Source: a virus (taxonomy: Duplodnaviria > Heunggongvirae > Uroviricota > Caudoviricetes). From it: DNA of 11,496 nt. Every line of letters starts with the position of its first letter. Within the stretch, counting starts at the first letter, position 1. Of the stretch, positions 1 through 11,496 are shown one piece after another. Under the pieces are notes generated by a model. That model searched no databases. It was not told where the DNA came from and worked only from the letters and a program-made list of their open reading frames with translations. The translations under genes and the position numbers were made by a program. The stretch lies in the IMG/VR virus record IMGVR_UViG_2541047847_000003, positions 1-11,496 of that record. One strand, 5' to 3'.

Positions 1-95
1 AGTTTGCTCCTGCCATAACGTGAAGAAGCAATGACCTGGTGGTCCGTGACTTCCCTACGCTGGCATTATCCAGATCAGGTGATACGGGTATTTCT
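1..95 (-). promoter_or_regulatory. thiM: 3' part of the thiM TPP riboswitch (aptamer 3' half plus expression platform); thiM start codon lies just beyond the left edge
   Basis: Reverse complement of 1..95 reads AGAAAUACCCGUAUCACCUGAUCUGGAUAAUGCCAGCGUAGGGAAGUCACGGACCACCAGGUCAUUGCUUCUUCACGUUAUGGCAGGAGCAAACU, which matches the well-studied E. coli thiM thi-box leader as I recall it. Confidence 0.85.
82..95. other. attL core: 14-bp ATACGGGTATTTCT, identical to the copy at 11083..11096
   Basis: Exact 14-bp direct repeat at both island ends; flanking bases differ on both sides (81 g vs 11082 a; 96 t vs 11097 c). The repeat lies inside the riboswitch sequence. Confidence 0.75.
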
Positions 96-160
96 TACTA
101 ATTACTTTTACCAGTTGATAATAAATAAGTTTTTAAGAACGCATAAATTAAAAACCTCAG

Positions 161-235
161 AACTGACCACACAACTGACCACACATTTTGTTGAAGCTCT
201 ACGAACAACGACGAACAATAACAAACAAAAGGGAA
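161..235. repeat. attL-proximal arm block: tandem AACTGACCACAC x2 followed by ACGAACAA-type repeats; homologous to 10929..10995
   Basis: AACTGACCACAC at 161..172 and 173..184. The roughly 75-bp block is about 80% identical (by eye) to the block beside int at the other end, in the same orientation. Confidence 0.6.
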
Positions 236-1134
236 ATTTGCTGGTGGTTTTGCTTAACCGTTATCATTTTTCGGCTATCCGTCATGAAGCTGGTGGATGA
301 TCACGGATAACCAGGCATCCACAGCGCCTTAAAAAGCTGAACCCGACAAACATTTCTGCTTATCGGGTCCGATCGCTCTTTCTGCTCGTGGCAGATGAGT
401 TTATTGGGAGAGGCGGAAACATTGTATCAGGCTATCCCCTTTCTGTGCTGATTTGCATAGTTGTATATAGCTGTGCGTCCACCAGACACGCAGGAATGGA
501 GTTTGTGAGGAACTATAAATCCTGCGCAAATTTTCCCGGCCCACTCAAATTGAGTTTTCCGAAAATATCAACGGCTTAGGCCAAAGCCCGAAAAAGGGCT
601 TTGTAAAAAATTAACCTAATACGGTCGCTTTAACCTACGGTAATCGTTCTGCTTCGGTGTGTGTCCCCTCTGCGGCCATCATGACCATGCCATAACAAAA
701 ACCCCATATTCGTGGTTTTTCTGTGTCGGGGCTATTCTGCTGTTGCCGTGCTGGTGGATATTCTCCGGTATGCGACTCCCCATATCGGCATCAGGCCCAC
801 CAGCGTGAAGCGTTTTTCATTTTTCGCGGGTATAAAAAATTGATGGGGCTGGCAGTCCGGAAGACGTCAGGGTACAGAGATTTGACCCGCCCCTCCCTGT
901 GCATAAGCACAATAAGTAACAGAAGGCGGAATTCCGCCCTCGGTACTCACATATGAGAAACGATATTTCTTCCACCGATACCCTTTATTTGGGTATCGCG
1001 AGTAAGCCCCAAAATCTGGGTGTTACTCTTACTACCCAAACTACGGGTGGTTTCCGTAGTTTCATGGTCGAGTTGCAGATCTGCAACTCACCCACCAGCC
1101 AACGCAATTTTGCGTTATCGGGAATATCAGGAAT

Positions 1135-1419
1135 CTACCGCCGCAACCGTTCCGGCTTCCTCCACTGGTAAGTATTTTTCGCGCTCTCCCTCCGTTGTTG
1201 AGAACGGCGACGGTATGCCAGCAACTCAAGGACTCTGATCCGTATGTCGCGCATATCCACGCCGTTAAGCTCGATACCGTCACGGCGCATCATCTCAGCC
1301 ACCACACGCGCGTAATTTTCGGCTATCACGCTGTCCGGCTGCGTGGCCTCCTGTTTGCTTGATGGTTGTTTGATTCCGGTAACGCGGCGGATTAATCCCA
1401 GCAATTCAGATTCTGTCAT
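1135..1419 (-). CDS. Small protein immediately downstream of terS; possible lambda gpFI-like packaging accessory protein
   Basis: ORF of 94 aa. N-terminus MTESELLGLIRRVTG resembles lambda FI MTKDELIARLRSLG, and VVAEMMRRDG resembles the FI C-terminal VAAEMTERG, both from memory. The C-terminal 40 aa are basic and low-complexity. Confidence 0.45.
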   Translation of the reverse strand: MTESELLGLIRRVTGIKQPSSKQEATQPDSVIAENYARVVAEMMRRDGIELNGVDMRDIRIRVLELLAYRRRSQQRRESAKNTYQWRKPERLRR

Positions 1420-1430
1420 AGTGCGCTACG

Positions 1431-1958
1431 TTACTTGTCTTTATTCGGCTGCAACTTATCCGGCACATTTCCGGTAGTTTCCATCAGGTAATCAGCCAGT
1501 ATCTGCGGGAGGTTGTCGTCAACTCCGGCACTGGCATTACAGGCTTTAGCCACTTCCTTTTTAAGTCCATCCAGCATAGCCGGAGTCATCTGTGGGAAGC
1601 GCCTTTGCATGGTAAGCGGCAGACTGTCCATGATAGATGAAATCTGACTCGCCAGTTTGGAAAGAACATACATACAAAACTCTGTATCAATAACGTCGCC
1701 GCGTTCGCGCTCGTTTTTAAGCTCCTGCGCCTCTGCCTGTGCTGTCAGTAATCTGATCCTGACGCGTAAAAGTTCATCGTCATCAATATCGCCCGTTTCG
1801 TTTGTAATCTGACTAATTGCATTGTTAACCCGATTATCTATTACACTGGCAACATCATAGAATGCCTCACGGCCCTTACGCTCGACGGGAATCACTCCCC
1901 ACTTATCAAACGCAGTGGCGCTTACACGGCAACTTTTTGCCATGTTTTTTTTGTTCAT
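1431..1958 (-). CDS. Terminase small subunit, lambda Nu1 family
   Basis: Translation aligns with lambda Nu1: RLLTAQAEAQELKNERERGDVIDTEFCMYVLSKLASQISSIMDSLPLTMQRRFP versus RLTRAQADAQELKNARDSAEVVETAFCTFVLSRIAGEIASILDGLPLSVQRRFP. N-terminal DNA-binding region is more diverged. Start chosen at the ATG giving MNKKN; the ORF track extends to 1982. Confidence 0.85.
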   Translation of the reverse strand: MNKKNMAKSCRVSATAFDKWGVIPVERKGREAFYDVASVIDNRVNNAISQITNETGDIDDDELLRVRIRLLTAQAEAQELKNERERGDVIDTEFCMYVLSKLASQISSIMDSLPLTMQRRFPQMTPAMLDGLKKEVAKACNASAGVDDNLPQILADYLMETTGNVPDKLQPNKDK

Positions 1959-2083
1959 CAGGTGCAATTTCATTGATACCACAACTTAATTACTGTTTCA
2001 GGTTGGTGTATTGATTGTATTTTTCTCTTCTTATTCATAGAGATAGAGCGAACAACAAAACCACCACCAGCCCCCTGAAAATG

Positions 2084-2148
2084 CTCATAAATAGCGAAAA
2101 CCCGCGAGGTCGCCGCCCCGTAGCCTGCCGGATCGCCGGAAAGGACCC
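2084..2148 (-). other. Lambda-type cos site (cosQ-like and cosN; 12-nt cohesive-end sequence at 2107..2118)
   Basis: Reverse complement of 2084..2120 is ACGGGGCGGCGACCTCGCGGGTTTTCGCTATTTATGA, identical to the lambda cosN junction and left end. 2119..2148 matches the lambda right-end cosQ region at about 27 of 30 positions. Lies about 130-150 bp upstream of terS, as in lambda. Confidence 0.85.
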
Positions 2149-2174
2149 GCCAGCCAGAACGGGCCCTAATTTCA

Positions 2175-2558
2175 TCAACCAATCAACTTATAGCGACCAT
2201 CCCGTGCATTGCGACGTACACGCTCAATCTTGAGGCATAGCGCCGCATCTGGCTTTTTGGGGACAGGTACGCGGCAATATTCAGAAGCTCGAGGAATATT
2301 GTTTATCCAGTCGATCACTTCACTTAAATACCAGGCCTTACGCCCTTCCGTAACCTGTACGCGTTCGGGGAACTCTCCACGAGCCTCAAGGTTTAGCAAT
2401 GTGCGACGGCTAAGGGTAGTAAGTTCCATCACCTGATTCATATCAACAAGGCGTTCACTTAAACGCATTTTGTCAGCAATAGCCTTTAATTCCTCTACTG
2501 CTGGATCCGGATACATCATTTCGGCAATTGGCTTAAGGTCATTGTAATGATTCTGCAT
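2175..2558 (-). CDS. AlpA/Vis-family HTH protein (second copy), 127 aa
   Basis: Central segment LTTLSRRTLLNLEARGEFPERVQVTEGRKAWYLSEVIDWI matches the AlpA-type HTH pattern. GGGGGA Shine-Dalgarno 4 nt upstream of the ATG; sits between the decoration gene and cos. Confidence 0.65.
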   Translation of the reverse strand: MQNHYNDLKPIAEMMYPDPAVEELKAIADKMRLSERLVDMNQVMELTTLSRRTLLNLEARGEFPERVQVTEGRKAWYLSEVIDWINNIPRASEYCRVPVPKKPDAALCLKIERVRRNARDGRYKLIG

Positions 2559-2569
2559 TGTATCCCCCT

Positions 2570-2911
2570 TTACACACGAGCCAGCGGCTGAACAGAAATA
2601 CCTGAGCCAACAAACGCGGCAACCTTTGCCGACAGTTCTCTTACAGACTCAGGCCAGTTCAGAGCATCAACATTTAAAACACCTGTCTTATAAACCTGTG
2701 CCTGTGTTTTTTTCGCTGTGTCGATTTGTACAGCGGAAACATAAACCGCTTTGCCTGCGCTCGTTCCATCCCATACCACTAGCGCACCAGTTGCATCTTC
2801 CTGCATCAGTGGCGTAAACGCAGGTATTACCCCTTTATTGGCTGAAAATATCCCCAGCGTAGTAACCAGTGCTTCAGTGCCAGACATGAGTTCAGTGTAA
2901 TGAGTAGCCAT
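2570..2911 (-). CDS. Head decoration protein, lambda gpD-like
   Basis: 113 aa. FTPLMQEDATGALVVWDGTSAGKAV parallels lambda gpD [25 protein letters not shown]; similar length. GGGGGAG Shine-Dalgarno 9 bp after the MCP stop. Confidence 0.8.
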   Translation of the reverse strand: MATHYTELMSGTEALVTTLGIFSANKGVIPAFTPLMQEDATGALVVWDGTSAGKAVYVSAVQIDTAKKTQAQVYKTGVLNVDALNWPESVRELSAKVAAFVGSGISVQPLARV

Positions 2912-2920
2912 TGCTCCCCC

Positions 2921-3967
2921 TTAGCCAATGCGAACGGTAACAAAACGATTGATGCGGGCCGGTATTGGCTGTGGTGCTGAATGTGTCTGCACATATTCAA
3001 TAGCCGGATCACCAGGCACAATATAGTTTTTCGGTGCAAGTTCGGCTTTAGTCAGCCCCATCCGAATTAGCTCCGGATCCTGAATACCGCCATAAGCGAC
3101 AATCCCCTGAAGAGCCGTATTGCCAAGCACCATCAAATCAGGATCAAGGAAATATTTTTCAGTTCCGTCCTCGTCGGTATAACGCCCGCTGTAAACAACA
3201 ATCGCAACATCGCCCATATACCCTTTAAAACTCACCGAATCACCAAGGTCTTTAAGGGCCGTTTCCAGTTCGGAATTAGAACCTCGACGGGTATCCAGAG
3301 CCTCTTTTACAGCTCTGAATGAGCGGTATTTTTTCCATACATTGCCGCCCATAATAATGATATTAGTGACTCCCTCACTAAATTCTGCGTAGCTCTCAAT
3401 ATCATCATTTGGATCAAAAGATCCTTTATCCTTACCTGACCACTCAGCACCGCCAGACTGAGTGATGATATTTTGTGGTTTAATATTCCAGTCCAGTTCA
3501 TAACGTTCAATACCATCGCCCTCAATGATATTTTTCCCCGTTGTGATTGCCTGAACAGCAAGCCATTCAATACGTGCACGTATAGCTTTAGCCTGATTTA
3601 CAATCGCCTGTTTAACTTTAATATTACGCGCCCCAAAAGCATTGTATTGTTCAGGTGATACACCAGCAGGGCGCACAGCTAACTTATTTGGATCAATGCT
3701 GCTTTTCGGTTTCATATAGCCAGGGCGAATTGTTTTTGATTCGTATCCCTCATCTCGTGAAACTTTACTGCCCACCATAGGAGAGCAAAACGCCGCGATC
3801 GGGATATTTGGATCGTCGATCGTATCAAGAATAATGTCTCTCGATTCAAACATTACCGAGCGAGTGAAAAACAAACTGGTAAACAACGCATTTAATTTTT
3901 TTTGCACATCTTCAGCATTAGCCACCTGCACAAGCTGTGTAGGCGAATATAAATCAACCATACTCAT
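2921..3967 (-). CDS. Major capsid protein, lambda gpE family
   Basis: Long collinear similarity to lambda gpE, for example NIITQSGGAEWSGKDKGSFDPNDDIESYA and AVKEALDTRRGSNSELETALKDLG and GDVAIVVYSG. Start set at MSMVDLY (lambda begins MSMYTT) with AAGAGG just upstream; the ORF track start at 4048 is probably an upstream extension. Confidence 0.9.
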   Translation of the reverse strand: MSMVDLYSPTQLVQVANAEDVQKKLNALFTSLFFTRSVMFESRDIILDTIDDPNIPIAAFCSPMVGSKVSRDEGYESKTIRPGYMKPKSSIDPNKLAVRPAGVSPEQYNAFGARNIKVKQAIVNQAKAIRARIEWLAVQAITTGKNIIEGDGIERYELDWNIKPQNIITQSGGAEWSGKDKGSFDPNDDIESYAEFSEGVTNIIIMGGNVWKKYRSFRAVKEALDTRRGSNSELETALKDLGDSVSFKGYMGDVAIVVYSGRYTDEDGTEKYFLDPDLMVLGNTALQGIVAYGGIQDPELIRMGLTKAELAPKNYIVPGDPAIEYVQTHSAPQPIPARINRFVTVRIG

Positions 3968-4132
3968 CCTCTTTACATTCATTACAAATAATTGTGAATA
4001 TATTCTATTACCGATGTCTGCTATGCGAATACATGCAACCAAGTGCAATGTTGTATAAAATCTGCCGTGACAACTTCAGTGCTGATAATTCGTGTTAATG
4101 TATTTACTTCCTTTGGTCGGGATTTATGTAGC

Positions 4133-4171
4133 ATGCCGGAAAATCTATTTTCTTCCGGCATTTTTTTATTT
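4133..4171 (+). terminator. Intrinsic-terminator-like hairpin with T-run on the plus strand
   Basis: ATGCCGGAA (4133..4141), 11-nt loop, TTCCGGCAT (4153..4161), then TTTTTTTATTT. On the minus strand the hairpin has no U-run after it. Confidence 0.45.
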
Positions 4172-4178
4172 GCAGAAT

Positions 4179-4601
4179 TTAAAACGGTATATTATCGCCG
4201 TACGGATCATCATTCCCCGACTGTTGTTTTGCCCTGTTCAGTGCGTCAGTAGCCTGGCCCTGTTGACCTTTTTTGCCGCCCGGTCGCGCCGTTCTGGCAC
4301 TGATTACACTGTCTGCGATAACCTGCCAGCCCTGCCGCGTTTCGCCGTTCTGGCCTGTCCACTGGCTTACCTGCATGTTACCCGCCACGCTCACCAGTTC
4401 GCCTTTGTGGTGTTTTGCCAGTGCGTCGGCCTGTCTGCCAAACGCCAGGACGGATAACCACATCGTCGCCGTTCCGTCATCTGCCTGGCTGCACGGAAGT
4501 GGGACCGCCATACTCGCCATCGTCATTTGTGTACCCTTGCTGGTGGTCTTTAACTGCGGGTCAGCCACCAGCCGCCCGTAAGCCGCTATCTGTGCTGTCA
4601 T
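4179..4601 (-). CDS. Single-stranded DNA-binding protein (SSB-like)
   Basis: 140 aa with an OB-fold-like pattern (WLSVLAFGRQADALAKHHKGELVSVAGNMQVSQWTGQNGETRQ), a Gly/Gln-rich linker and a C-terminal DDPYGDNIPF resembling the SSB DDDIPF tail. Confidence 0.7.
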   Translation of the reverse strand: MTAQIAAYGRLVADPQLKTTSKGTQMTMASMAVPLPCSQADDGTATMWLSVLAFGRQADALAKHHKGELVSVAGNMQVSQWTGQNGETRQGWQVIADSVISARTARPGGKKGQQGQATDALNRAKQQSGNDDPYGDNIPF

Positions 4602-4843
4602 GCTGTCTGCTCTCCGGTTTTAACGTTGATGGTTGTCACCTGTTCCGCTTCGGCAATCTCCCGTTCTGTCAGCGTGGCAAAGTTTGCAGCTGCCGTTGTC
4701 ATGAATGAGCTAATCAGTTCGGGATGTGCTTTCGCATATCCTTCCCCGGCGTTGCGGTCGATGATTTTTATCGACACCCTTAACCAGTGTTCCGTCAAAT
4801 CAAGGGCGTGCGATTGTGATTTTTTTGTGTGCTTCGCTGTCAT
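4598..4843 (-). CDS. Hypothetical protein, 81 aa, translationally coupled to ssb
   Basis: ORF whose stop overlaps the ssb start by 4 bp (ATGA); no recognisable motifs. Confidence 0.45.
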   Translation of the reverse strand: MTAKHTKKSQSHALDLTEHWLRVSIKIIDRNAGEGYAKAHPELISSFMTTAAANFATLTEREIAEAEQVTTINVKTGEQTA

Positions 4844-4895
4844 AGGCTTTATCTCACAGCAGTAAATTAAAATTTTTGCGTTTTAACCCTTCACC

Positions 4896-5116
4896 TGTTC
4901 ACCTTTTGATATTTTATCTTTTAATTCATAATGTTAAGGGGTGAACAGTTTCACAAAAACTATTCACCAACTGTTCACCACTGTTCACCCTTGAAGCTCA
5001 ATAAACAATCAAAAAGGTGAACAGTGAATAGTTTGGTGAACAGTTCATAAATAACTGTTCACCCTATAACATACTGATACAAAAGATATTTATGACAGGG
5101 TGAACAGTGGTGAACA
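4896..5116. repeat. Origin-like iteron cluster: about 10 copies of TGTTCACC/GGTGAACA in both orientations with AT-rich spacers (P4 ori/crr type)
   Basis: TGTTCACC at 4896, 4972, 4982, 5056; GGTGAACA at 4940, 5016, 5035, 5099, 5109; variants at 4961 and 5024. Immediately downstream of the alpha-like gene. Confidence 0.85.
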
Positions 5117-5130
5117 GTTATTCCATAAGT

Positions 5131-6948
5131 TTAATTTTTGCTATCGTCATTAGTGACCGATACACATGATGGCATCCAGTCTTCTGATTCCTCCGTCAGT
5201 GTCACGTTTGAACGCAAACCGTGCTTCGTTTTCCGTTTCATATACTCCCTGCCATATTCCGCCATTGCCCCCGGCATATCTTTACCGAAGCGCGTCAGTG
5301 TTACAGGTTTACCAAACCCATGTGCCCTCATATAAGCCAGATAGGCATGATAGAGATACCTGCGTGGGCTGAATGGCACAATTTCAGCATTACCCACTAA
5401 CAGGCCATCACACATTACCGACGCCATGAGATAGCCGCAGAAGTCCACCAGCGAATCCCCCTCTCGCTTTATCGCCAGTGCTTCTTCAGATTTCTGCTGC
5501 TCATATAACAGGCGTCTGGCTTCGTCCTGGTCAGCAAACCGTGTAAGCAGATGGCGAATCACTACCGCCAACTCACCTTCTATTTTTTCCGCCAGCATTG
5601 GATCGCGTTCGTTCTCCGGTACAACTTCCGAAAAATTGAATATCACCCGACGACGTGAGATCCCCCCGCTGCGGTCACTGAATGACATGGCGTTATTGTT
5701 AACCGCCAGCACTACTGCCGGAATACGCGTTGAGTAGGGGGCTTTGTGTTTCGGGTCAATTGCCACCTTGTCACCGCCTGTAATGGCCTTAATTCCTGCC
5801 CCATCACCAGCGTAGCGGGTCATATCCGGCATGATAATCAGCGAAAAGCCAACCACTAACGCGCGTTCCCTTGCATCTTCCAGCGCCTTCATGCTTGCCG
5901 ATACTGTGTTGGCCTTACCCGCCAGCATGGTGCAAATCTCCGCCATCACGCTTTTACCACTTCCCCCTGGACCTGTTACCTCAATGAATAACTGCCAGTC
6001 GTACCGGTTCGCCAGCACCATGAATAATGCAGCCAGTACGCGATCCGCCTTGCGGTCATTCTCAGCCACCGAACGGCGTAACCACTTCCAGAAATTCGGC
6101 GCATGTGTTGCCAGCGTTTCCCCCTCTGCTGGTGGGCTGAAAGGTAATTCACTGGCAATTAACAACCAGTCGTTTTTGTTATGCTCCCGAAAATTACCTG
6201 TTCTGGTATCAAATACCCCGTTACTGAATCCAATCAGGTTACGGGCTGTATTCCCCATTACAGGCAAACTTAACTTCATGGTATCGACCGCCGATTTAAT
6301 GGCGTTCTGCGAATAGCTGATCTCTGCATCAATGAAAATCTGCGCCATAGCTCGCTGTAATTCTTTATCCTGTACTGGCTCCCATACAACGCCGTTGTAA
6401 TGGTGAACAGTGTCAGAGTCAGCATGAATCGCCAGTTCACCGCCATAATGTGCCAGGAGAACTTCGCCGCGTTGACTTGCTCCCATCTGGTTAAGCGCCA
6501 GTGATGAAGCGTTATCGTCTTTTACCCGCTCTTTTTTCTTTACAGGCAGTTCAACTACCTTTTTCTTTTCCGCCAGCTCTGCCCGTTCACGTTCCAGATA
6601 TTCGCGCCAGTTCTCCCGTTTCTGGCTGTGCATTCCTTCAGGGTAATAATCAGCATCCCTGACACCTGCCGCTGCCAGTTTCTGCCCGATGGTATTAACA
6701 AGCCCCGGACGCAATAACCCCGCCTGATAGAGACGCACGCGATAGCGTCCGTCCGGTACGATTTGCAGGTTGTCCAGTTCGGCAAGTTGTTGCTCTCCAA
6801 GCCAGACAGGAGGCACGTTATCGCCAGCCAGTCGCCCGTCCTGTTCCTGCCACTGCTTCGCATGTGCCCACGCATCACTACCCGCAAAAATGATGACTTC
6901 CGTCATTTTGTCACGCGGCTGGTGTTTTAAATTTGGCGCTTTTTTCAT
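5131..6948 (-). CDS. P4 alpha-like replication protein (primase/helicase family, D5-type P-loop NTPase)
   Basis: Walker A GPGGSGKS and a Walker B-like hydrophobic stretch; adjacent TGTTCACC iterons. Start set at the ATG giving MKKAPNL (GGAGAGAG upstream); the ORF track start at 6963 is a GTG. No primase catalytic motif was identified by eye. Confidence 0.8.
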   Translation of the reverse strand: MKKAPNLKHQPRDKMTEVIIFAGSDAWAHAKQWQEQDGRLAGDNVPPVWLGEQQLAELDNLQIVPDGRYRVRLYQAGLLRPGLVNTIGQKLAAAGVRDADYYPEGMHSQKRENWREYLERERAELAEKKKVVELPVKKKERVKDDNASSLALNQMGASQRGEVLLAHYGGELAIHADSDTVHHYNGVVWEPVQDKELQRAMAQIFIDAEISYSQNAIKSAVDTMKLSLPVMGNTARNLIGFSNGVFDTRTGNFREHNKNDWLLIASELPFSPPAEGETLATHAPNFWKWLRRSVAENDRKADRVLAALFMVLANRYDWQLFIEVTGPGGSGKSVMAEICTMLAGKANTVSASMKALEDARERALVVGFSLIIMPDMTRYAGDGAGIKAITGGDKVAIDPKHKAPYSTRIPAVVLAVNNNAMSFSDRSGGISRRRVIFNFSEVVPENERDPMLAEKIEGELAVVIRHLLTRFADQDEARRLLYEQQKSEEALAIKREGDSLVDFCGYLMASVMCDGLLVGNAEIVPFSPRRYLYHAYLAYMRAHGFGKPVTLTRFGKDMPGAMAEYGREYMKRKTKHGLRSNVTLTEESEDWMPSCVSVTNDDSKN

Positions 6949-7244
6949 TTCTGCTCTCTCCACGCGGCAATCATGTTTTTCAGTTCCTGTAGTTTTTTAT
7001 CCACATCCACACGTGACACATGGTTATTTCTGGAAGTCGGGATTTCCCGCCGGAATCTGCAAATAAAGATCTCCACGTTCAGCGAACTAAGAAATGAATA
7101 GCCATCACGAATAAAATACACACGGTCAAACATCAGTTCTTTTACCGTTACTCTGTTACCGTTCTTATCCAGATAAATAGCGCCGGGGATAATTTTGGGG
7201 TGTGCATAACCGCTGGCAGTCAAGCCAGATAAATATGTTCTCAT
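6945..7244 (-). CDS. Hypothetical protein, 99 aa, translationally coupled to the alpha-like gene
   Basis: Stop overlaps the alpha start (ATGA); no recognisable motifs. Confidence 0.55.
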   Translation of the reverse strand: MRTYLSGLTASGYAHPKIIPGAIYLDKNGNRVTVKELMFDRVYFIRDGYSFLSSLNVEIFICRFRREIPTSRNNHVSRVDVDKKLQELKNMIAAWREQK

Positions 7245-7250
7245 GATTAT

Positions 7251-7571
7251 TTATCCCCGATTTGAATCAGTATTCGCTTTCTTTATGGCATTTAATGCAT
7301 CTGTGGCATTTTCAATGGTGCACCGTAACGAAATATCAAACTGCCCAAGCATTGCCAGTAACAAACCGATATTACCCATATCAATGCGCATAGCCTTTTC
7401 GTCATAGTCCTCATTTTCTGACGCATGCCACATCAGACTACCAATTGACGCAACAGCCATTGATATATTGTCAGTAGCCCCATCCGCAGCGGAATAAACC
7501 TTTTTAGCAATATCATGCTCACAGTTAAAATGCGGATTAATCAGGTACTGGTAATTTGACATATCAGGCAT
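7251..7571 (-). CDS. Hypothetical protein, 106 aa
   Basis: ORF in the same operon; its start overlaps the stop of the upstream 67-aa ORF (ATGCCTGA). Confidence 0.55.
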   Translation of the reverse strand: MPDMSNYQYLINPHFNCEHDIAKKVYSAADGATDNISMAVASIGSLMWHASENEDYDEKAMRIDMGNIGLLLAMLGQFDISLRCTIENATDALNAIKKANTDSNRG

Positions 7572-7767
7572 GGCACACCCCCTGACGAATACGGGCGGCG
7601 AATACCATCACGCAGCCAGCCGGGGATTGCTGGCGTGCTTCCTGTTCGCTGGTGGCCACGATGTGAATCACGCGCGGTTGTGCGGTGCTCAGGGCGATAA
7701 AACGCCAGATGTATTTATTCAGGTCGTGCGAGTCCCGCCCTTGCGGGTGTGTGGTATGATTTCTCAT
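7564..7767 (-). CDS. Hypothetical small protein, 67 aa, first gene of the replication operon
   Basis: Internal ATG of the 320-aa track ORF, preceded by GAGG; the sequence upstream in that frame looks non-coding. Stop is coupled to the next gene. Confidence 0.45.
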   Translation of the reverse strand: MRNHTTHPQGRDSHDLNKYIWRFIALSTAQPRVIHIVATSEQEARQQSPAGCVMVFAARIRQGVCHA

Positions 7768-7863
7768 AGCTACCTCGATACGCTTTCTATCGTTGGTGGT
7801 TAGAAGCCCGGTTAGTGTTAGCGCACTGCCGGGTTTCGTCGTTTCTGCACCTTGCATCAACAA

Positions 7864-7917
7864 GGTGTTGAACACCAATTTAAGCCTAGGTGTTAAACAC
7901 GTCAAGTGTTGAACACT
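7864..7917. promoter_or_regulatory. Three operator-like inverted repeats (GGTGTTGAACACC, GGTGTTAAACAC, AGTGTTGAACACT) in a divergent promoter region
   Basis: Repeats at 7864..7876, 7889..7900 and 7905..7917. The third overlaps a candidate -35 (TTGAAC) placed 17 bp from CATACT for the plus-strand gene. Confidence 0.6.
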
Positions 7918-7966
7918 TATTTTTTTTCCTGCATACTGCATTTGTTTTTTGTAAGGGGTACACAAC

Positions 7967-8146
7967 ATGGCGACAAAAGCAGTAAACGCAAAATCACAAA
8001 CAGTTGCGGCAAGGGTTCCGCATGAAGTTATGAACAATGTTGAGGCGGTAAAAATGCCTGGTGAAAGTACAGGGCAGTTTGTAACAGCAGCATTAAAGCG
8101 AGAAGTTGAATACCGCCAGCGTCGCAAGGCCAAAGAGCAGGAGTAA
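7967..8146 (+). CDS. Small ribbon-helix-helix-like protein, 59 aa; candidate repressor
   Basis: Below the ORF-track length cutoff. AGGGG Shine-Dalgarno 8 nt upstream. Pattern QTVAARVPHEVMNNVEAV...GESTGQFVTAALKRE fits a beta-strand/helix/helix RHH layout. Confidence 0.5.
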   Translation: MATKAVNAKSQTVAARVPHEVMNNVEAVKMPGESTGQFVTAALKREVEYRQRRKAKEQE

Positions 8147-8203
8147 CCATCACCAGCGCCGTGGTGCGGTGAACTGTGGCGCACAGGGTTACAGGTATCT
8201 ACG

Positions 8204-8383
8204 ATGACTGACAAATCATTAAAGAAATTATCCTCATCCAAGAAAAAACAACGCAAAAATGCGGTAAACGAACATGAACCGGAGAGATTCGCACCATGTG
8301 CGTTTGTCCTTGAGAAGTACCTTAAAGAGTATTCTAGGAAAATACGCTCATTGCAGGCATGGCAGCGAATCGAGCCAGACTGA
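8204..8383 (+). CDS. Hypothetical small basic protein, 59 aa
   Basis: ORF found by hand downstream of the RHH-like gene and before the plus-strand terminator; weak Shine-Dalgarno. Confidence 0.3.
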   Translation: MTDKSLKKLSSSKKKQRKNAVNEHEPERFAPCAFVLEKYLKEYSRKIRSLQAWQRIEPD

Positions 8384-8447
8384 TAGCATTGCCCACCAGC
8401 CAACAACCTGGTATTCTGGATATGCTCAAGTTTAGTGTTATGCCACT

Positions 8448-8477
8448 GGCGACCGCCCTTGGTCGCCTTTGTTTTAT
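8448..8477 (+). terminator. Rho-independent terminator (plus strand)
   Basis: GGCGACC, loop GCCCTT, GGTCGCC, followed by TTTGTTTTAT. Confidence 0.6.
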
Positions 8478-8494
8478 GTGTCATAGCTCCCCCC

Positions 8495-8719
8495 CTACGC
8501 TGCCTTACCTGAATTAACGCGGTCACGGCTTTGCACCCAGTCCATAACTTCGGAAAGCAACCAGCCTACAGAACGCCCCCCAAGATTACGGCGAGACGGA
8601 AAGCCCCCTTTCTTCTCCAGTTCGTAGCGTGTAGTACGGCTGACGCCTGTTAACTTACGACATTCATCTTCACGAATTACGCGATCTGTTAGTGATTGAA
8701 ATTGTGTATTTTGATTCAT
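8495..8719 (-). CDS. alpA: AlpA-family transcriptional regulator / excisionase-like HTH protein
   Basis: 74 aa; RKLTGVSRTTRYELEKKGGFPSRRNLGGRSVGWLLSEVMDWV matches the AlpA/Vis-type HTH pattern; GAGGG Shine-Dalgarno. Confidence 0.8.
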   Translation of the reverse strand: MNQNTQFQSLTDRVIREDECRKLTGVSRTTRYELEKKGGFPSRRNLGGRSVGWLLSEVMDWVQSRDRVNSGKAA

Positions 8720-8822
8720 AAAAACACCCTCGAACGTAACCGAACAAGGGCATCTTATTTACCATAGCAGTTGGTGCAATATTGGAAAAATAAACTTTAT
8801 TCTAATTTATCGTTCTCCATGA

Positions 8823-9677
8823 TTAATTTTCATTAGATAACATTTTTCTTATTTTTTCTAAAGAATCGCTGCGCATTATTTTTTCTAAGAAGGGTTTTAC
8901 AGTCTGAGCAATAGCAAAGGTGTCCTTTTCACCATCAGGATACAAAGATACGGCAAGCACCCCTAATGAAATTTTTCTATCTGTAGACAACTCCCAAGAT
9001 AATAAGTCAATTAATGGGATTATCTTATAATCAATAATTTTACGTCGTATGCTCTCCCAACTTCCTGCAATTGGTTTGTCTGGCTCAACAATTGAAAGTT
9101 CACTACGCCATTTTGGTAATAGTTTTGTAAACGCTTCAATCAACTCATCATCTCTGTTATGTAGTAAGTCAACAGAAACAAGCATATTATCTAATGTATC
9201 AGAAAGGAGATTCACTGGTTCACGCATCACAGCCCAAAACATCCCATTATCTTCTGATATTAAACTTCCAACCATCTCATTATCTATGATGATTGGTTTA
9301 TCCTTCCAATATCCTCTTTCCGCAGTCAGTTTATTAATCATTGATATATCAAACCTTGTTACAGGTTTAATTCCATCATCATAACTTAGCTCAATTAACT
9401 TCGGCTGCACTTTATGGTCATATTCTTTTTGTTTATCACAAAACCAATCGTCTTCTTTCAGCTCTCCAAATGGATCCCCATAATTATTATGCAACGGGTA
9501 TTCAGCACCAAACATAAAACCATATTCAGGCATCTCAGAATGTTTCATTGTTAAATCATCTTGTCGCCAATATAATTGGCGAAATAGATCTTTATCCGAC
9601 AAGTTTTCTAGGCAATCATATTTGCCTAAATCAAATGACTTTGGTAAATCTTTTTTACTATTTACTTTTTTCGTCAT
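8823..9677 (-). CDS. Hypothetical 284-aa protein, AT-rich cargo gene immediately downstream of int
   Basis: Long ORF whose start overlaps the int stop by 4 bp. Visibly more AT-rich than the neighbouring genes (not computed). No motif I recognise. Confidence 0.7.
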   Translation of the reverse strand: MTKKVNSKKDLPKSFDLGKYDCLENLSDKDLFRQLYWRQDDLTMKHSEMPEYGFMFGAEYPLHNNYGDPFGELKEDDWFCDKQKEYDHKVQPKLIELSYDDGIKPVTRFDISMINKLTAERGYWKDKPIIIDNEMVGSLISEDNGMFWAVMREPVNLLSDTLDNMLVSVDLLHNRDDELIEAFTKLLPKWRSELSIVEPDKPIAGSWESIRRKIIDYKIIPLIDLLSWELSTDRKISLGVLAVSLYPDGEKDTFAIAQTVKPFLEKIMRSDSLEKIRKMLSNEN

Positions 9678-10894
9678 TGTATCCCTCTCAATATCACAAT
9701 ATTTTCATTATATCCTGCAATCATATCAAGACGCTCAACCCATAGATGCAGTGCGTCCCGTTTCGCCTGCAAATAGCGTGAATGGTTATAGGTTTTTTGC
9801 TGACCTGGCATCTGATGCGCTGTGATGTGCTCCACGATATGCGGATCGACACCTAAATCATTCAGCATAGTTGTAAACGTGTGTCGGAAATCATGCAGCG
9901 TCCAGTGTTCCTGCTTAAGCCGCTTATGCGCATTTCGTCCATATTGCGCCACCGTGGTATCTTTTTTCAGTTCGCCGAGTAATAACCCAGTGTGTGCGTT
10001 TTGCTCCACCAGCTTCTGAATGAACGGCAAAATACCATCAGGAATAGGTCGGAATATTGTTACCTTCGTTTTGCTGTGCTCTTTTGGCACTGTCCACAAC
10101 ATTTCTTTCAGATCCCATTCTTTGATCTCTGAAAGTCTGATCTCTGCCGTTCTGCACCCGAACACAATTAACAAGCGCATTAACGCACTGTAATAGGGAG
10201 CGAACACATCACCATCAATAGCGCGTAGAATTTCTTTTAGTTCGCTGTTGCTGTGCACTCTCTCGCGGATTTCTGCTCTCTTACCCACATCAGTAACGAT
10301 CAAATCGTCCAGGGCGTTGCTAAACGCGTAGCGCCGCCTGCGGCAAAACTTTAGCGCCTGTTTGCATGTCTGCATGACATGGCCCGCTGCTACTGGTGCT
10401 TTTTTTCGTACGCGGTCAAAACATGCGATCCACTGCCTTGTATCACACTTATCAAGGGGAATTGCCCCGATATGGCAAATGATGTGCTTATCCATACGCT
10501 GCACCAGCTTTATGTAATCTTTGCGGTTATCCTTCGCGTATTCCTCCAGCCAGTAGTTAATCGCTTCCTTCACCGTAACGGGTTTTAGTGCTTCCTGTAC
10601 TGTGGCGCACAACTCATACCGAGGGTTTTTACCCTCAGCCAGCCATGCCCGGCACTGTGTTCGCTTTTCCCTTGCAGATTTCAGCGACAATTCCGGGTAA
10701 GCCCCCAGCTTTAACCGCTCTGCGGCAACCTCACGGCCTCCCGTTCGGTACCGGAAATACCAGGTTAATTTACCTCCCTTTGAGTGTTTAATCTCCAGCC
10801 CGCCCCCGTCGGAGTAAAAACGTTCTTTTTCTGCCTGGACAGCCACCAATTTTTTTAACGTTGAATCGCTCAGTTTGTTTAGTGCTTTTCCCAC
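9674..10894 (-). CDS. int: Tyrosine recombinase, P4-type integrase family
   Basis: 406 aa. N-terminal arm-binding-type region (GGKLTWYFRYRTGGREV...LGAYPELSLKSAREK); C-terminal catalytic motifs HDFRHTF and YNHSRY; GTG start. Confidence 0.9.
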   Translation of the reverse strand: MGKALNKLSDSTLKKLVAVQAEKERFYSDGGGLEIKHSKGGKLTWYFRYRTGGREVAAERLKLGAYPELSLKSAREKRTQCRAWLAEGKNPRYELCATVQEALKPVTVKEAINYWLEEYAKDNRKDYIKLVQRMDKHIICHIGAIPLDKCDTRQWIACFDRVRKKAPVAAGHVMQTCKQALKFCRRRRYAFSNALDDLIVTDVGKRAEIRERVHSNSELKEILRAIDGDVFAPYYSALMRLLIVFGCRTAEIRLSEIKEWDLKEMLWTVPKEHSKTKVTIFRPIPDGILPFIQKLVEQNAHTGLLLGELKKDTTVAQYGRNAHKRLKQEHWTLHDFRHTFTTMLNDLGVDPHIVEHITAHQMPGQQKTYNHSRYLQAKRDALHLWVERLDMIAGYNENIVILRGIQ

Positions 10895-10928
10895 TATCAG
10901 ATCCTCTTTTCAGTCCTCCAGCCTCAAA

Positions 10929-10995
10929 AAACTGACCACACAACTGACCACACATTTCGCTGAAACTCGGCAAACAACAACGAACAGCAACAAAC
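10929..10995. repeat. int-proximal arm block: tandem AACTGACCACAC x2 plus CAACAACGAACA-type repeats; homologous to 161..235
   Basis: AACTGACCACAC at 10929..10940 and 10941..10952, about 30 bp upstream of the int start. Confidence 0.6.
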
Positions 10996-11082
10996 GAGAA
11001 AGCCAATTAAATCATTGTATATCAAACATATACACAAACAATCACGAACATCCCAGAACTACAAAAAACACTAAATGAGAAA

Positions 11083-11096
11083 ATACGGGTATTTCT
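11083..11096. other. attR core: ATACGGGTATTTCT
   Basis: Identical to 82..95; continuous on its right with chromosomal thiM leader sequence. Confidence 0.75.
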
Positions 11097-11127
11097 CAGC
11101 CTTCACAAAGAAGGGCACCCCGAGTCG
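11083..11127 (-). promoter_or_regulatory. thiM: 5' part of the thiM TPP riboswitch aptamer, separated from its 3' half by the island
   Basis: Reverse complement reads CGACUCGGGGUGCCCUUCUUUGUGAAGGCUGAGAAAUACCCGUAU, the 5' half of the thiM aptamer including the conserved CUGAGA element. Confidence 0.8.
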
Positions 11128-11223
11128 TTTGGTTGCGATAATAAATCGCAGAGGAGGATGGTAATGTCCAGCGCACGCGTTGTAAACGGGGAAAAACGGC
11201 GGTATTACAATAACGTTGTGAAA

Positions 11224-11496
11224 TTATTTGATATAAGAATCCAGCACCTTCAGAACGACATCCAGATCTTCTTCTCGTTTTAGCTCATCCCCCTGGTGAA
11301 CGATGTGTTCCGTCAGATGGCCTTTAATCACTTCCCGCATCAGACCGTTTACCGCGCCACGGATAGCAGCAATCTGTTGTAAAACTGCAGCGCATTCATG
11401 CGGTTCGTCGAGCATTTTCTTGAGCGCCACGACCTGGCCCTGAATCTTACTGGCACGCGCTTTCAGTTTCTGTTTATCACGGATTGTATGAGACAT
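11224..11496 (-). CDS. rcnR: Ni/Co-responsive transcriptional repressor RcnR (CsoR/RcnR family)
   Basis: 90-aa translation [61 protein letters not shown]... matches E. coli RcnR as I recall it; complete CDS ending at the window edge. Confidence 0.85.

Follow-up and report, generated by a model that had tools for sequence, protein, structure and literature searches.

An 11.0-kb island at the thiM-rcnR site of Escherichia coli is probably a classical cos-type PICI with a Nu1-type small terminase

A phage-inducible chromosomal island (PICI) is defined by five core components, namely an integrase, an alpA-type regulator, a primase-replicase, a capsid morphogenesis component and a small terminase, and the definition forbids genes for tail, holin, portal and connector proteins (de Sousa 2023, PMC10085698). 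"Type A" elements, which have five of the five components, are found in E. coli in 97% of cases (PMC10085698), and the layout of the classical E. coli PICI has been described (Fillol-Salom 2018, PMC6092414; de Sousa 2023, PMC10085698). The prototype Gram-negative cos PICI, EcCICFT073, requires int, alpA and pri; its alpA is activated by the helper, and lambda, phi80 or a resident lambdoid phage mobilises the island by way of cos. Helper induction, high-frequency transfer and helper interference have been shown for EcCICFT073 only. Packaging specificity in this island depends on RppA, one of the Rpp proteins that lack a domain for binding the large terminase (TerL) and must form a heterocomplex with the helper small terminase (TerS). 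RppA binds the helper TerS and EcCICFT073 therefore needs the helper terS, its transfer being <1 with a phi80 terS-deletion helper. The present analysis concerns the 11,496-nucleotide stretch of DNA formed by positions 1 to 11,496 of IMG/VR record IMGVR_UViG_2541047847_000003 (the window), which contains an element of 11,001 bp bounded by two exact copies of a 14-bp direct repeat, ATACGGGTATTTCT (82-95 and 11083-11096; chance expectation 0). These att coordinates coincide with the span assigned to the element in a preliminary description that had been made from the sequence alone. The element is very probably a classical cos-type E. coli PICI of a Nu1-TerS subtype, not capsid-forming, and a recombinant within the EcCI family.

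All five of the PICI components of SatelliteFinder are present and the forbidden genes number zero, as judged from Pfam, PHROG and BLAST matches. A tyrosine integrase (9674-10894, minus strand) with an N-terminal Arm-DNA-bind_3 domain and a Phage_integrase domain (Pfam) is encoded at one end of the att-flanked island, the length of which falls within the ~8-15 kb of PICIs. The gene for the AlpA regulator/excision factor (8495-8719, minus strand; Pfam Phage_AlpA, E = 4.8e-16) lies downstream of int in the same orientation. The primase/helicase (Pri-Rep; 5131-6948, minus strand) contains D5_N, DUF5906 and Pox_D5 domains, and an NCBIfam run on the window proteins added only its P4-family primase C-terminal domain (TIGR01613). 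The replication origin is situated directly 3' of pri, as in other PICIs, and comprises nine TGTTCACC iterons in both orientations (4896-5116); the octamer occurs ten times in the window versus 0.52 expected. The capsid component is a gpE-like major capsid protein (MCP) homologue (2921-3967, minus strand) recognised by its Pfam Phage_cap_E match (5.9e-41) rather than by SatelliteFinder's own profile, and the small terminase is a full-length Nu1-type TerS of 180 amino acids (1431-1973, minus strand; Pfam Phage_Nu1, E = 1e-24; PHROG 57, E = 6e-54 over residues 3-179). The substantial genes of the island all lie on the minus strand between the att copies.

Searches of all six frames of the window gave no Pfam or tblastn match to tail, holin, portal, connector or TerL proteins, and tblastn with lambda A, W, B, C, Nu3, FI and FII returned nothing significant. 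The preliminary description had likewise missed any gene for TerL, portal, protease, scaffold or tail, and had proposed that its reading would fail if portal, protease or terL genes lay just beyond the boundaries. Both flanks are chromosomal, the left being the thiM leader and the right rcnR (11224-11496), and the neighbours of a near-identical island in strain C21 are thiM-thiD and rcnR-rcnA; thus, there are no head or terminase genes just outside the island. The same description left room for an undescribed architecture. This part does not stand, as the arrangement is that of a standard five-component "Type A" PICI; EcCI224, with the att core and site of the window element, EcCIIHE3034, with its E-D-cos-Nu1 module, and EcCICFT073, with its gene order, have all been published. 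The element thus belongs to a known family as an ordinary representative, and novelty was wrongly claimed for it.

The closest relative of the int-to-origin backbone is EcCI224 of E. coli strain Ecol_224. The two islands share their 14-bp att core and their rcnR ('frmR')-thiM site; the EcCI224 core is listed as AGAAATACCCGTAT at "frmR-thiM" (Fillol-Salom et al. 2018, Table S1, PMC6092414), which is the reverse complement of the repeat in the window. The proteins of this part are nearly identical (Int 99%, DUF6387 protein 99%, AlpA 100%, 106-aa protein 98%, DUF4222 protein 95%, Pri 99.7%), nine TGTTCACC iterons are found at both origins, and the products of the last genes share 81% identity. 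In contrast, the late module of EcCI224 consists of a ClpP-protease/MCP fusion and a DUF1441 protein, whereas that of the window encodes a single-strand DNA-binding protein (SSB), gpE-like, gpD-like and AlpA-like proteins, and the Nu1-type TerS.

A late module of the latter kind is seen in EcCIIHE3034, a reference PICI at the cspD-clpS site, in the order SSB, MCP, decoration protein, one further gene, cos, Nu1-type TerS and a 93-aa gene. The TerS and SSB proteins of the two islands are each 90% identical, and the cosB region is kept through to terS. EcCIIHE3034 differs in its att site, in its Int (66%) and Pri (48%), and in an origin that lacks TGTTCACC; its MCP and gpD alleles are only 54-55% identical to those of the window, and a 137-aa gene takes the place of the AlpA-like gene. 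EcCICFT073 is syntenic gene for gene (int 66%, alpA 66%, pri 49%, ssb 71%, MCP (c1499) 54%, gpD (c1500) 54%, last gene 68%), has a lambda-type cosQ/cosN with a non-lambda cosB, and lacks TerL, portal and tail genes. The differences are that EcCICFT073 carries RppA (144 aa) in the slot where the window has the full-length Nu1 homologue, that it has two cos sites rather than one, and that an unrelated 137-aa gene occupies the slot of the second AlpA-like gene of the window.

The block extending from pri through the SSB, MCP, gpD and AlpA-like genes to cosN is closest to a helper-embedded PICI of the 11capE type (Williams lab, PMC10111431) in E. coli ET490 (NZ_CP100947.1, 3242951-3262925), which is integrated in a lambdoid prophage's E gene. 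Window positions 2074-6554, from cosN to pri, are 93.5% identical to it in nucleotides, the alleles of the MCP, gpD and AlpA-like genes being the same, and the homology stops at the cosN/cosB boundary. Unlike the window element, the ET490 island has no TerS, carries DUF262/HEPN cargo after cos, and has a different int and alpA. The cosB-TerS cassette also diverges sharply among otherwise close islands, with a synonymous divergence (dS) of 0.5-0.8 for TerS versus 0.07-0.12 for the MCP. The TerS gene (1431-1973) and its counterpart in locus L010 (9356-9898), from two otherwise close islands, have a dS of 0.77 and ~83% nucleotide identity, and their flanks are 96-98% identical, which suggests that packaging specificity turns over by diversification or that the cassette has been exchanged. 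This TerS also replaces Rpp in islands located at phoQ and clpS, and Rpp and Nu1-type TerS therefore look like alternative cassettes of one slot. Four complete genomes hold at least 80% of the whole element, at 97.5% identity; for the late module, the same coverage of at least 80% is reached in 264 genomes out of 5426 complete ones of E. coli. With different closest relatives for its backbone, its capsid/cos module and its cosB-TerS cassette, the island is a clean example of module exchange within the PICI family.

The cos region occupies ~1974-2149 on the minus strand. It includes the 12-nt lambda cohesive-end sequence GGGCGGCGACCT as an exact match (cosN, 2107-2118) and a cosQ-like segment (2119-2149) that forms part of a lambda-like block (2074-2149) in which 70 of 76 bases are identical to the right-end/left-end junction of lambda (cosQ + cosN), so that the lambda cos and the Nu1-like TerS of the preliminary description are both borne out. 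Similarity to lambda ends ~30 bp past cosN. The cosB-equivalent region (1974-2106, minus strand) is unrelated to lambda cosB, the alignment to EcCIIHE3034 continues past cosN up to the terS start, and the island cosB co-varies and is co-inherited with TerS. The window contains one match to cosN only, and no second site within three mismatches was found at 96-1135.

The TerS protein shares 35% identity with residues 3-180 of lambda Nu1 and 48% with N15 gp1, and its alignment with both extends across the C-terminal part, which in lambda binds gpA. Its kinship with Nu1 is argued from BLAST, Pfam, PHROG and a multiple alignment; a phmmer search of TerS against PDB sequences gave no match at E <= 10, and lambda Nu1 1-68 and RppC were not recovered by it. 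Islands of the Rpp subtype are characterised by a protein of 144-153 amino acids with a winged helix-turn-helix and a dimerisation helix but no TerL-binding domain, together with a helper-type cosN/cosQ and an island-specific cosB. The second of these features is present in the window and the first is not, and BLAST detected no similarity between TerS and RppA. Packaging specificity conferred by the island's own TerS acting on its own cosB is plausible.

The MCP homologue is 42% identical to lambda E from end to end (residues 1-341), and the adjacent gene (2570-2911, minus strand) encodes a gpD-like head decoration homologue (Pfam HDPD, 4.6e-15) that is 40% identical to lambda D, confirming that gpE-like and gpD-like genes are present. 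Their order is E then D in the island and D then E in lambda. The ratio of nonsynonymous to synonymous divergence (dN/dS) is 0.03-0.14 for the MCP homologue, 0.05-0.15 for the gpD-like protein and 0.10-0.18 for TerS; the late genes are all intact and under purifying selection (0.03-0.18). The phage protein closest to the MCP homologue in the collection searched is 42% identical, and comparison of the late-module DNA with phages gave ~75% identity over no more than 135 bp, within E, which indicates that there was no recent capture from a sequenced phage.

The preliminary description took the two genes to mean that the element depends on a lambda-like helper while supplying its own shell. Dependence on a lambdoid helper follows from the missing TerL, portal, protease, scaffold and tail genes. 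The shell of its own is unsupported and runs counter to experiments on EcCICFT073, the closest relative to have been characterised, in which deletion of c1499 or c1500 gave 3.8e3 and 8.7e3 versus 8e3 transductants per ml and left interference with lambda unchanged, and packaged EcCICFT073 DNA was all phage-sized; small-capsid DNA was not seen, and Dokland's review agrees. A c1499::cat replacement transferred at 1e5. By analogy, the gpE-like and gpD-like genes are probably dispensable for building the transducing particle. They are conserved components of the family, and a major capsid gene is found in 21 of 29 reference Gram-negative PICIs (Williams and colleagues, PMC10111431). It is unlikely that the element is a new, partially capsid-forming satellite that would assemble its own gpE/gpD shell, possibly a small one of 11-kb size, on the portal, scaffold and protease of a helper. 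Such a particle would suit genes whose homology to lambda E and D is full-length, and the strong purifying selection and the identity of at most 42% to any phage in the collection indicate that both are long-term satellite residents. PmCI172, which also has a capsid homologue, makes small capsids, and the EcCICFT073 trials covered only a few helpers. Apart from the neutral deletions and the phage-sized DNA, the proposal has to accommodate an MCP that shares no more than 42% identity with lambda E and would need to fit a foreign scaffold, portal and protease, and an architecture that is already known.

The same genes might be relics of a capsid-forming PICI (cf-PICI) or of a lambdoid prophage that has lost its portal, protease and TerL. 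PICIs do capture helper late genes, and int, alpA and pri are common to cf-PICIs and classical PICIs; EcCIEDL933, a cf-PICI, shares the int-alpA-pri backbone and the dependence on a helper. In contrast to the window, in which no TerL, portal, protease, head-tail adaptor or connector was detected, cf-PICIs carry a full module for head formation and packaging, of HK97 type (TerL, HNH, portal, protease, connectors), rather than lambda E/D. Of the full head, tail, lysis and immunity modules of a lambdoid prophage, the island has nothing but homologues of Nu1, D and E, and the order of the latter two is reversed relative to lambda. Decay is also difficult to reconcile with open reading frames (ORFs) that are all intact, exact att repeats, dN/dS values of 0.03-0.18, and the recurrence of the same minimal set at several att sites and in 264 genomes. 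This origin is thus very improbable and was rejected on gene integrity, recurrence and selection.

The gene between cos and the gpD-like gene (2175-2558, minus strand) encodes a second AlpA-family helix-turn-helix (HTH) protein, of 127 amino acids (Pfam Phage_AlpA, 1.4e-8; PHROG 2790, 2e-48; PDB 8c3t, 1.6e-10). It had been described as FI-like, an identity that was rejected in view of the AlpA-family HTH matches and the lack of Pfam, PHROG or BLAST support for FI; neither this 127-aa ORF nor the 94-aa ORF matched lambda FI or the FI families. With the exception of FI, what had been observed is confirmed, and the interpretation placed on it is supported in part.

The link to satellite P4 is real but partial. 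Residues 150-600 of Pri are 50.7% identical to residues 320-771 of P4 alpha, covering the helicase and origin-binding domains, the TGTTCACC octamer is the type-1 repeat of the P4 ori, AlpA is 45% identical to P4 ORF88/Vis, and both elements are ~11 kb in size. These P4 hallmarks had been recognised correctly. Int is only 22% identical to P4 Int. The homology of Pri to alpha is confined to the C-terminal two-thirds, the N-terminal primase domain of alpha being replaced. P4 remodels P2 capsids with Sid, and the window element has no such gene; when all six frames of the window were searched by tblastn with Sid, Psu, Delta and Epsilon, nothing significant emerged, in agreement with the earlier failure to see Sid-, Psu- or Delta-like ORFs. 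The P4-like core of de Sousa & Rocha 2021 calls for at least five of seven components (int, psu, delta, sid, alpA, epsilon, alpha), and three are found here (int, alpA and a partial alpha). A P4-like satellite of P2-type helpers in which the capsid-remodelling operon had been swapped for lambda genes would explain the alpha homology, the identical iteron, and the AlpA/Vis and P4-type Int homologues. This is the least probable of the alternatives considered, since int, alpA and primase are common to the P4-like and PICI families (de Sousa et al., PMC10085698), four of the P4 core genes are absent, the alpha primase domain is replaced, and the cos site is that of lambda, with no match to P2/P4 cos within three mismatches (query, a P2 cohesive-end sequence).

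By analogy to the PICI family, the most likely life cycle of the island as a classical cos-type PICI may be outlined as follows. A lambdoid helper would turn on alpA, and Int together with AlpA would excise an 11.0-kb circle from the thiM leader. The P4-alpha-like Pri-Rep would then fire the TGTTCACC-iteron origin and generate concatemers. The island TerS would bind the island cosB and, because it aligns with Nu1 through the gpA-binding C-terminal segment, may recruit the helper large terminase (gpA type) directly, in contrast to the heterocomplex with helper TerS that characterises the Rpp mode of EcCICFT073. The helper large terminase would presumably cut at the cosN/cosQ, which is kept nearly identical to that of lambda, the cosN being lambda-identical. 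DNA would enter helper-made proheads, and helper tails and lysis would complete the transfer. Four units (4 x 11,001 = 44,004 bp) amount to 0.91 of a lambda genome and three units to 0.68; thus, packaging of ~4 units (44.0 kb) is most likely, as a plausible head-full.

Comparable strategies are known from SaPIs, pathogenicity islands found in Staphylococcus aureus. In the pac-type islands with their own TerS (SaPI1/SaPIbov1), the satellite TerS turns the helper TerL to satellite DNA, and SaPIbov5 Ccm is a satellite-encoded MCP homologue. The proteins are unrelated, however, and SaPIs use headful pac packaging with a Ppi partner. For Ccm the formation of small capsids has been demonstrated, whereas no phenotype is known for the MCP homologue of E. 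coli PICIs.

Several points weigh against the reading adopted here. The MCP and gpD homologues are held under strong purifying selection (dN/dS ~0.06), which implies that they do something that the model leaves unexplained. TerS has a C-terminal extension of 12 residues that is absent from phage Nu1 proteins, and its putative direct recruitment of TerL is deduced from the alignment. EcCIIHE3034, the one island of the TerS type that was tested in marked form in 2018, showed poor transfer out of its native strain (<1 to 40 per ml). Against this background, the gpE and gpD homologues might be structural with particular natural helpers, either co-assembling with or replacing the helper proteins to give satellite-specific or small shells or substituting for a helper E gene broken by a related island, or the Nu1-type TerS might free this subtype from the helper TerS in a packaging mode distinct from that of Rpp. 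We regard this combined possibility as unlikely. Were the proposed role of gpE/gpD correct, such islands would be intermediate between classical PICIs and cf-PICIs. The locus raises the subject of whether islands of the Nu1-TerS type bypass the helper small terminase, unlike those of the Rpp type, and of what role the conserved capsid and decoration homologues play in classical E. coli PICIs.

The last gene of the island (1135-1419, minus strand) encodes a conserved 94-aa PICI protein (PHROG 1561, profile match) that is 68-81% identical to the last gene products of EcCICFT073, EcCIIHE3034 and EcCI224, and is a core gene of the PICI family; a PDB search with the protein gave a chance-level match only. 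This gene adjoins the packaging-specificity gene in every case, be it Rpp, Nu1-type TerS or DUF1441. The SSB (4179-4601, minus strand; Pfam SSB, 4e-16) is followed toward the origin by an 81-aa conserved PICI protein (4598-4843, minus strand; PHROG 1231) with 86% identity to the EcCICFT073/IHE3034 homologue. On the other side of pri are the genes for the DUF4222 protein (6945-7244, minus strand; Pfam, 6e-17), a 106-aa protein (7251-7571, minus strand; PHROG 15327; 98% identical to its EcCI224 homologue) and an Icd-like protein of 67 amino acids (7564-7767, minus strand; PHROG 6196, 1e-43), the homologues of which are annotated in relatives as Icd-like cell-division inhibitors. Two small genes are on the plus strand: a divergent YlcI/YnfO-family protein (7967-8146; annotated as such in relatives, 61% identical to the EcCICFT073 homologue) and a conserved 59-aa protein (8204-8383; PHROG 21027, 63% identical to the EcCICFT073 homologue). 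The cargo slot between int and alpA is occupied by a DUF6387 accessory gene (8823-9677, minus strand; Pfam DUF6387, 4.6e-31) with a GC content of ~0.35. PADLOC found no credible defence-system match among the accessory ORFs, DUF6387 included, and a literature search on DUF6387 returned nothing relevant.

A two-hairpin RNA structure (7768-7850; minimum free energy -35.1 kcal/mol, z = -4.3) adjoins the Icd-like ORF at its start. Conservation with EcCICFT073 is 90% across this block, and its symR-like Rfam score is 32.8 bits versus a threshold of 61; possibly the icd-like operon has here a small RNA with a regulatory or antisense role. The divergent region that separates this operon from the YlcI/YnfO-like gene contains three palindromes of nearly the same sequence, GTGTT(G/A)AACAC (7865-7915), which look like operators. 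At gathering thresholds Rfam gave no match anywhere in the window; a permissive run returned the weak symR-like match and a split thiamine pyrophosphate (TPP) aptamer.

The latter reflects the integration site, as the att core falls within the aptamer of the thiM TPP riboswitch; the published table gives no more for this site than 'frmR-thiM'. In MG1655 the thiM riboswitch is whole and contains the att core (RF00059, 71.2 bits; locus L013, 837-933). In the window the aptamer is split between 35-95 and 11083-11127 (both minus strand), with the 5' half beside rcnR, 11 kb off, and scores 34.4, under the gathering score of 54.3. The island parts thiMD from its own promoter by 11 kb, and an att site that splits the riboswitch could bear on host thiamine metabolism. 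A simple sigma-70 scan of 1-2300 found no promoter driving thiMD, which is weak evidence either way. A strong terminator-like hairpin (339-370, minus strand) lies between the island genes and thiM and is directed at thiM. The ~1 kb between the last island gene and att (96-1135) has no convincing ORFs, and positions 303-671 are absent from the closest relatives (C21, TCM3e1). Just inside both island ends are imperfect direct repeats of 66 nt with a tandem AACTGACCACAC motif (161-226 and 10930-10995), which are 86% identical over their length and are possible arm-type sites of the integrase.

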